Source: Escherichia coli (GTDB lineage Bacteria; Pseudomonadota; Gammaproteobacteria; Enterobacterales; Enterobacteriaceae). Taken from it: a DNA stretch of 64,000 nucleotides. The DNA lies in the NCBI RefSeq assembly GCF_050920415.1, contig NZ_CP169309.1. One strand, 5' to 3'. Each line of letters begins with the position of its first letter. Positions within the stretch are counted from its first letter, which is position 1. The position numbers and the translations under genes were made by a program. Positions 40,038 through 42,165 of this stretch are shown here, in pieces. The notes under the pieces are model-generated. The model was not told the DNA's origin. It saw nothing but the letters and a program-made list of their open reading frames with translations, and searched no databases.

Positions 40038-40138
40038 TGTCAGCGCCAATGATATAAGACAGTAATTCACCATTTGGATTGTCCGCTCCACCCAACATGT
40101 TGTTTCCTTAAGGTTCCTACACCACAAAGGGAACACTC

Positions 40139-41310
40139 ATGCTGAGCAGAGAGGACTTTTACATGATAAAGCAAATGCGCCAGCAAGGTGCGTATATTGT
40201 TGATATTGCCACTCAGGTTGGTTGCTCTGAGCGGACTGTCAGACGGTACCTGAAATACCCGGAACCTCCGGCCAGAAAAACACGCCACAAAATGGCCAAA
40301 CTCAAGCCGTTCATGGACTATATCGACATGCGTCTGGCTGAGAATGTCTGGAACGGCGAGGTCATCCTGGCGGAAATCAAAGCGATGGGTTATACCGGTG
40401 GCCGTTCCATGTTGCGTTACTACATCCAGCCCAAACGTAAGATGCGGCCATCGAAGAAAACGGTTCGCTTCGAAACTCAGCCCGGTTACCAGCTACAGCA
40501 TGACTGGGGAGAAGTTGAGGCTGAGGTTGCCGGGCAACGATGCAGGGTTAACTTCGCGGTTAATACGCTGGGGTTCTCACGTCGCTTCCATGTCTTCGCG
40601 GCACCAAAGCAGGATGCTGAACATACCTATGAGTCACTGGTCCGCGCCTTTCGCTACTTCGGCGGCAGCGTGAAAACCGTGCTGGTCGATAACCAGAAAG
40701 CCGCAGTGCTGAAAAATAACAACGGGAAGGTGGTGTTCAACTCCGGGTTCCTGCTGCTGGCCAATCACTATGGCTTCCTGCCACGGGCCTGCCGTCCACG
40801 AAGGGCCAGAACCAAAGGTAAGGTGGAACGGATGGTGAAATACCTCAAGGAAAACTTCTTCGTCCGGTACCGCCGGTTCGACAGCTTCGCCCATGTTAAT
40901 CAGCTACTGGAGCAGTGGATGGCTGACGTTGCCGACAGGCGGGAACTTCGCCAGTTCAGGCAGACACCGGAACAGCGCTTCACGCAGGAACAGGTGCATC
41001 TGCAGGCGCTGCCAGGTACGGACTTCGATACCAGCTACTTCGATATCCGTCATGTCTCCTGGGATGGCTATATCGAGGTTGGCGGGAACCGTTACAGCGT
41101 GCCGGAAAGCCTGTGTGGCCAGCCGGTATCAATACGGATCTCGCTGGATGATGAACTGCGATTTACAGTAATGAGCAACAGGTAGCATTGCACCGTCTCT
41201 GTTCGGCTGTATACGGCTGGCAGACCGTGCCGGAGCATCACGCCCCACTCTGGCAGCAGGTCAGTCAGGTGGAACACAGGCCGTTGAGTGCCTATGAGGA
41301 GCTGTTGTGA
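40139..41310 (+). pseudogene. istA: IS21-family transposase IstA, apparently frameshifted near the 3' end
   Basis: 348-aa ORF (40139-41185) with N-terminal HTH and DDE integrase core; the remaining ~43 codons (...VALHRLCSAVYGWQTVPEHHAPLWQQ...) lie in the -1 frame and end at a TGA overlapping the istB ATG; frame switch required between 41155 and 41182. Confidence 0.7.
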
Positions 41311-42104
41311 TGCATGAACTGGAGACACTGCTGGGTCGTCTTAAAATGGAACATCTGGGCTACCACGTTGAAAGCCTGCTGGAGCAGGCGGCCAAAAAAG
41401 AACTGAACTACCGCGAGTTCCTGTGCATGGCGTTGCAGCAGGAATGGAACGGGAGGCATCAGCGCAGTATGGAGTCCCGGCTGAAACAGGCCCGCTTCCC
41501 GTGGGTCAAAACGCTGGAGCAGTTCGACTTCGGCTTCCAGCCAGGTATCGATCGTAAGGTCGTCCGTGAGCTGGCCGGGCTGGCGTTCGTGGAGCGTAGC
41601 GAGAACGTGATCCTGCTGGGTCCGCCTGGTGTGGGTAAAACGCACCTGGCAGTCGCTCTCGGGGTAAAAGCGGCGGACGCTGGTCATCGGGTGCTGTTCA
41701 TGCCACTGGATAAGCTGATCGCCACACTCATGAAGGCAAAACAGGAAAACCGGCTGGAAAAACAGCTACAGCAGCTTGGTTATGCCCGGGTACTGATACT
41801 GGATGAGATAGGCTATCTGCCGATGACCCGCGAGGAAGCCAGTCTGTTCTTCCGGTTGCTGAACCGTCGATATGAAAAAGCGAGCATCGTGCTGACGTCA
41901 AATAAAGGGTTCGCCGACTGGGGAGAGATGTTCGGCGATAACGTGCTGGCAACGGCAATCCTGGATCGACTGCTACACCACTCAACCACACTGAACATCA
42001 AAGGAGAAAGCTACCGGTTAAAGGAAAAACGCAAAGCGGGAGTGCTGGCAAAAAACGCCACGCCAATCAGTGATGATGAAATGGCGGCAAGCGGACAACA
42101 TTAA
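41310..42104 (+). CDS. istB: IS21-family helper ATPase IstB
   Basis: 264 aa from ATG 41310; Walker [12 protein letters not shown] and Walker B LILDEIGY; start overlaps the istA-frame stop (TGATG). Confidence 0.88.
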
Positions 42105-42165
42105 TGACCAATAGCGGACATTAAAAATGGCGAAAAACGGCCAATAATCTTGGCGTTGACATAAT

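Follow-up and report, generated by a model that had tools for sequence, protein, structure and literature searches.

IS21 of plasmid R68.45, the prototype of its family, is a two-gene operon, and the same organization is found in ISEc62 of Escherichia coli. According to its published description, IS21 has the -35 box in the right terminal inverted repeat and the -10 box in the left, and only where copies stand in tandem do the two combine into a strong promoter (PMC10122671). IS5376 of Geobacillus stearothermophilus (PDB 8b4h, 8q4d, 8q3w), a distantly related element whose host is Gram-positive, serves as the family's structural model; it generates 5-bp target duplications, in contrast to 4 bp for ISEc62, and its IstA requires two complete direct repeats per end for integration (PMC10122671). 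Within IS5376 IstA, a beta-barrel spanning residues 300-355 docks into the partner protein IstB, and neither a Y343A/R345A double mutant nor an IstA cut down to residues 1-287 still stimulates the IstB ATPase or shows IstB-activated integration (PMC11208146). The same paper describes the role of the extreme C-terminus of IstA as undefined (PMC11208146); Gln369, which lies in the C-terminal region, contacts a flipped base, and its mutation reduces integration (PMC10122671). ISEc62 itself is mentioned only twice in the literature, both times in passing.

Canonical copies of ISEc62 are 2125 bp long and encode istA (1173 nt, 390 aa) and istB (795 nt, 264 aa), which overlap by one base within TGATG. 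The copy in E. coli E24377A (NC_009801.1 1011391-1013515) resembles the element described here over its whole length at 98.3% nucleotide identity and shares its ends, its 101-bp leader, a 4-bp duplication and the arrangement of istA and istB around TGATG. However, the copy in our window, by which we mean the whole 64-kb stretch of E. coli DNA that was analysed, is 1 nt shorter (2124 vs 2125 bp), which leaves istA frameshifted. The closest copy that we found is in strain MFDS1022581 (L001 3001-5124; NZ_CP169399.1 142533-144656), with 99.8% identity. That copy interrupts an HlyD-family gene and is flanked by the duplication CGAC, whereas the window copy lies in yhbX. The two copies differ at window positions 40763, 41160, 41189 and 41394, and their defects are reciprocal: the MFDS1022581 copy has an intact istA and an istB frameshifted by the loss of one A within an A-run, equivalent to window position 41394.

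The block at 40038-42161 on the + strand is an IS21-family insertion sequence of 2124 bp, which starts at T40038 (TGTCAGCGCCAA...) and ends at A42161 (...TTGGCGTTGACA). In a megablast search of 5426 complete E. coli genomes, its full length matched ISEc62-family copies at 98.3-99.8% identity, and 865 records from 708 of these genomes, chromosomes as well as plasmids, contained a match spanning 80% or more of the element. An element is named ISEc62 when its nucleotide identity to the ISfinder reference is at least about 95%; here the name follows the RefSeq/PGAP annotation of near-identical copies, which serves as a proxy for a match to that reference. The names on the matching copies are "IS21-like element ISEc62 family transposase" and "IS21-like element helper ATPase IstB". 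A sequence-only reading of this DNA had proposed an IS21-family element with exactly these coordinates that carries istA and istB and no cargo. The family assignment is borne out by both proteins, which score above the curated NCBIfam cut-offs: the istA open reading frame reaches 280.7 bits against NF033546 (transpos_IS21, an equivalog model with a cut-off of 160), and istB reaches 297.3 bits against NF038214 (IS21_help_AAA, cut-off 200). Because a 101-bp leader at the left end, the two genes and a 57-bp trailer at the right end fill the element, there is no room for cargo, as had been claimed. Both genes are indeed present, but the reading overstated the integrity of istA, which is a pseudogene frameshifted by a 1-nt deletion. 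The features of the locus are collected in the table below.

Features of the ISEc62 copy and of the interrupted yhbX gene, in window coordinates
Feature	Position	Strand	Basis or remark
yhbX 5' part, codons 1-291	39165-40037	+	identical to nt 1-873 of MFDS1022581 yhbX
Left copy of TAAT duplication	40034-40037	.	single TAAT in intact yhbX
ISEc62-like IS21-family element	40038-42161	+	98.3-99.8% identity to annotated copies; canonical length 2125 bp
L1, left terminal repeat (TGTCAGCGCCAA)	40038-40049	+	11/12 vs reverse complement of right end; invariant in 7/8 copies
-10-like extended element TGATATAAG, left-end positions 13-21	40050-40058	+	read from sequence
L2, internal left repeat (TGTCCGCTCC), 42 bp inward of L1	40080-40089	+	
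istA, frameshifted; ORF of 348 aa vs 390	40139-41185	+	
1-nt deletion site; single G vs GG in compared copies	41160	+	alignment with L001-L003
Untranslated istA 3' remnant, original-frame codons 342-390	41161-41310	+	original stop TGA 41308-41310
istB, AAA+ helper ATPase, 264 aa, intact	41310-42104	+	NF038214; IS5376 IstB structures
R3, internal right repeat (TGTCCGCTTG)	42088-42097	-	
R2, internal right repeat (TGTCCGCTAT), 41 bp inward of R1	42111-42120	-	
R1, right terminal repeat (TGTCAACGCCAA on - strand)	42150-42161	-	
Right copy of TAAT duplication	42162-42165	.	
yhbX 3' part, codons 292-541 and stop	42166-42918	+	identical to nt 874-1626 of intact yhbX

The lesion in istA changes CTGCGGATT to CTGCGATT. 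The reading frame shifts after Arg341, and the open reading frame ends in ...LRFTVMSNR* at a stop codon at 41183-41185, with the frameshift lying 49 codons ahead of the normal stop. Re-insertion of a G at 41160 restores a 390-aa IstA that differs from the nearest copy at two residues, D209N and S351L. The underlying substitutions, at 40763 and 41189, are private to the window copy among the copies aligned and are both non-synonymous in the original istA frame, and the private substitutions amount to approximately 10 times the per-site difference between the flanking chromosome and MFDS1022581. When a 70-nt query spanning the deletion was searched against the 5426 complete genomes, only 71-nt targets that contain the extra G were detected, and no detected copy shared the deletion.

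We compared the two proteins with the solved structures of the family. The closest structure to IstA is that of IS5376 IstA; their alignment covers residues 1-388 (E=7e-84) and includes the motifs HDWGE, VLVDN and KGKVER. The intact IstA of E24377A (L002; 98.3% identical DNA) matches in Pfam an HTH domain at the N-terminus, the rve integrase core and Mu-transpos_C_2, the latter at residues 291-361, and ISEc62 shares with IS5376 the order of HTH-1, HTH-2, DDE, beta-barrel and C-terminal extension. In the window copy both the HTH and the DDE regions are preserved, and the beta-barrel is interrupted after Arg341. The second open reading frame, on the same strand as istA, extends from 41307 or 41310 to 42104 (265 or 264 aa) and encodes a Walker A motif (GPPGVGKT) at residue 104 and a Walker B motif (LILDE) at residue 162; it matches the IS5376 IstB structures over residues 11-243 (E=1.6e-66).

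The IS5376 data suggest what the truncation would do. Tyr343 of ISEc62 IstA aligns with Tyr343 of IS5376 IstA, and because the frameshift replaces all residues from 342 on, it eliminates the counterpart of this IstB-contacting residue, the last strands of the barrel and all of the C-terminal extension. Extrapolating from the Geobacillus homologue, we consider the window copy to be probably non-autonomous and unable to transpose on its own. The arrangement of the two genes is also affected, as the istB ATG overlaps the original istA stop (TGATG) and translation of the frameshifted istA ends 125 nt before the istB start. Since the istA stop normally overlaps the istB start and now comes early, translational coupling between the genes is probably lost. 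The ends and istB are intact, so that the window copy could be mobilised by IstA from a second ISEc62 copy elsewhere in its genome.

We also observed defects in another copy of the element. In strain A20 (L007 101-2224, NZ_CP028755.1), istA is annotated with an internal stop, and one A has been lost from the A-run at the right end. Defective ISEc62 copies seem to be common.

The ends of the element are organized as in other members of the family. The terminal inverted repeats, which the sequence-only reading had called imperfect, match at 11 of 12 bases and have the form TG...CA, and in a gapped alignment the similarity of the two ends extends in register to approximately 50 bp. The octamer TGTCCGCT has four exact matches in the 64-kb window, compared with 2.17 expected, and three of the four are inside the ends of the element (40080-40087 on the + strand; 42090-42097 and 42113-42120 on the - strand), each in the same orientation relative to its nearer terminus. 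Together with the terminal TGTCAGCGCC and TGTCAACGCC, these matches define left-end sites at positions 1 and 43 and right-end sites at positions 1, 42 and 65. The reiterated motifs reported near both ends are thus L1 and L2 on the left and R1, R2 and R3 on the right, which are TGTC(A/C)-type repeats with the L1/L2 and R1/R2 arrangement of the IS21 family. IS5376 and ISEc62 have in common at least two direct repeats per end and a terminal CA; unlike IS5376, the right end of ISEc62 contains three repeat copies. The ends were nearly invariant among the eight ISEc62 copies compared. The output of a generic repeat finder consisted mostly of chance pairs in the coding region, and only one of its pairs, I2 (40066-40087 / 42113-42134), corresponded to the L2 and R2 sites.

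Sequences that resemble promoter halves occur at both termini. The final + strand hexamer of the element, at 42156-42161, is TTGACA, an outward-facing -35-like sequence, and TGATATAAG in the left end is proposed as the -10 half of an IS21-type junction promoter. In a putative head-to-tail junction with 2 bp between copies, the two would be brought together as TTGACA-N17-TATAAG, with a TG before TATAAG, so that ISEc62 would reproduce the design of IS21 with a 17-bp spacer. Its IstA also contains an in-frame Met9, which matches the start position of the IS21 'cointegrase', eight residues in. By these likenesses, ISEc62 may have both a junction promoter and a cointegrase isoform. A consensus promoter scan for hybrids between the terminal TTGACA and the yhbX flank found none with at least 9/12 matches, and activation of the 3' yhbX fragment from this hexamer is therefore unsupported. 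Because istAB and yhbX are co-oriented, istA might be transcribed by read-through or from a hybrid promoter.

Further promoter-like sites were noted. The right end contains a weaker outward-facing site, TTAAAA-N16-AATAAT at 42121-42148, which is a consensus match only. At the left junction, a hybrid site at 40024-40053, likewise a consensus match only, combines ATGACA from yhbX, an 18-nt spacer and AATGAT from the element. An alternative reading of the same junction, within 40024-40058, is TTCATA-N17-TATAAG with a TG before TATAAG.

To place the insertion, we compared its flanks with an intact yhbX. The left flank ends in ...CATAAT and the right flank opens with TAATTACC..., whereas intact yhbX reads CATAATTACC, which indicates that the target-site duplication is the 4-bp TAAT. 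The direct repeat had been given as ATAAT(T); this does not hold, as the extra A or T is the element's own terminal A or T. Target duplications in the IS21 family range from 4 to 8 bp. All eight ISEc62 copies examined have 4-bp duplications, which in the seven others are CGAC, AGCA, GCTG, CCAC, GTAA, TATG and CTGA and adjoin the TG...CA ends.

Excision of 40038-42165 yields a yhbX open reading frame of 1626 nt that is identical at 1626/1626 nt to yhbX of MFDS1022581, which is annotated as a phosphoethanolamine transferase. The insertion point is directly after codon 291. The claims that removal of the element and one repeat restores the frame and that the event was a simple insertion rather than a rearrangement are thus both upheld by the alignment of the flanks, which rejoin into a contiguous gene. 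The sequence-only reading had named the absence of an IS21 match and flanks that do not rejoin as grounds for abandoning it, and we found an IS21 match and flanks that rejoin. The 5' part of yhbX reads into the element as far as a stop codon at 40050-40052, which produces a chimeric open reading frame of 295 aa. By sequence, yhbX is inactivated by the insertion, as the gene is split between the part encoding the membrane anchor and nucleophile and the remainder of the sulfatase-type domain. No polar effect is expected because the next gene, argG, is convergent. The 3' fragment contains a 243-aa open reading frame from an ATG at 42187 that has no clear ribosome-binding site; an anchor-less truncated YhbX domain might conceivably be expressed from this fragment, but this is unsupported.

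Separately, a contig of Logan SRR35550335 (L014 1-541) contains yhbX free of the element with two 1-nt homopolymer insertions relative to the window, and the 3' part is called there as a separate 243-aa gene. These insertions represent either independent pseudogenisation of yhbX or a read-assembly error.

Outside the element, the window is collinear with NZ_CP169399.1 of MFDS1022581, with eight mismatches and no gaps over 61.9 kb (six mismatches in the 40,038 bp on the left and two in the 21,841 bp on the right), and the host chromosome around yhbX is 99.99% identical. The annotated genes from gltD/gltB to yraR are ordinary chromosomal genes, and this gap-free collinearity with a close relative agrees with the view that the element is the only non-core block in the window. 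Neither junction of the insertion was found in the 5426 complete E. coli genomes, as no record covered at least 80% of either 500-nt query. Exact-product look-ups did identify three draft assemblies that carry the yhbX::ISEc62 junction sequence at 100% identity. The contig of GCA_000194575.2 (AEXD01000019.1; L011) runs across the left junction and ends 549 bp inside the element, and those of GCA_037967425.1 (L012) and GCA_002965625.1 (L013) begin inside the right end and exit via the right junction. The presence of the junctions in independent draft assemblies indicates that the insertion is inherited within one lineage and is no assembly artefact, and the contig breaks inside the element suggest that the draft genomes hold more than one copy.

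Taken together, these results make it likely that an ISEc62-type element inserted between yhbX codons 291 and 292 in a lineage very near MFDS1022581 and that its istA later lost one G, which likely left the copy non-autonomous. Drawing on the mechanism of the IS21 family, an IstA tetramer would have bound the repeated sites of both ends (L1/L2 and R1/R2/R3) and cleaved at the terminal CA-3'. IstB, as an AAA+ ATPase, would have held and bent the target DNA while the ends were joined to staggered cuts 4 bp apart, and gap repair would have produced the TAAT duplication. The G may have been lost from istA after insertion, or the element may have been copied from an unseen donor that already lacked it.

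A different origin of the locus, such as an assembly misjoin or a rearrangement in which recombination between two copies of the element joined unrelated flanks, could in principle be imagined because the element is multi-copy in the closest genome, where it matches four places in NZ_CP169399.1. However, the flanks together make up a single gene and rejoin with no mismatch, the 4-bp duplication is typical of ISEc62, gene order on both sides is that of the reference genome, and the same junctions occur in three independent draft assemblies. The rejoined yhbX, the collinear flanks and the draft-assembly junctions refute this explanation, to which we assign practically no probability. The status of the missing G is a closer question, as the element could instead be a fully functional, autonomous ISEc62, with the gap at 41160 due to faulty sequencing or assembly. 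Multi-copy repeats are prone to error in single-base consensus, and both the nearest copy from a complete genome (L001) and the A20 copy (L007) also contain single-base indels, located in A-runs and typical of long-read consensus errors. Furthermore, the 348-aa product had no exact match in a collection of 153 billion genes, and none of the draft contigs with the same junctions reaches 41160. In contrast, the 61.9-kb flank is free of any indel relative to the closest genome, which indicates a low rate of assembly indels, and the deletion falls within a run no longer than two G. The two additional private substitutions, both non-synonymous, fit relaxed constraint, in a sample of only two changes. 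We therefore regard a sequencing error as unlikely, while taking it seriously as an account of the deletion.

A true deletion could also have been retained for a function. The truncated IstA might act in trans as an inhibitor that binds ISEc62 ends, occludes their promoter elements, poisons mixed tetramers and thereby damps other copies. The 348-aa open reading frame does retain both HTH domains and the catalytic core, and in the family model IstA, when bound, covers the promoter boxes of the ends and forms interdigitated tetramers (PMC10122671), while IstA without the barrel is not activated by IstB (PMC11208146). However, the frameshift is private to one copy, which gives no sign of selection or spread, nothing supports stability or expression of the 348-aa product, and random decay of insertion sequence copies is common, as the defective L001 and L007 copies illustrate. 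Retention as an inhibitor is, in our estimation, very improbable. A broader speculation, which we consider very unlikely, is that ISEc62 in this lineage consists of reciprocally defective copies that would move only by trans-complementation, or that the 348-aa IstA stub would be a dominant-negative regulator of transposition.

An insertion of an ISEc62 copy that was probably disabled by loss of one istA G remains our preferred explanation, and the locus has minor significance. ISEc62 is an already known element, its insertion in yhbX is an ordinary strain-level event, and we see no sign of a novel type of element or mechanism. For annotation, the lesson is that this copy should be labelled as a pseudogene-bearing insertion sequence with a 4-bp duplication. 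The frameshift in istA exemplifies the routine decay of insertion sequences, and the insertion knocks out yhbX, a non-essential gene for a putative phosphoethanolamine transferase. The insertion provides a clean clonal marker, found in a few draft assemblies and in none of the 5426 complete E. coli genomes, with little import beyond strain typing.
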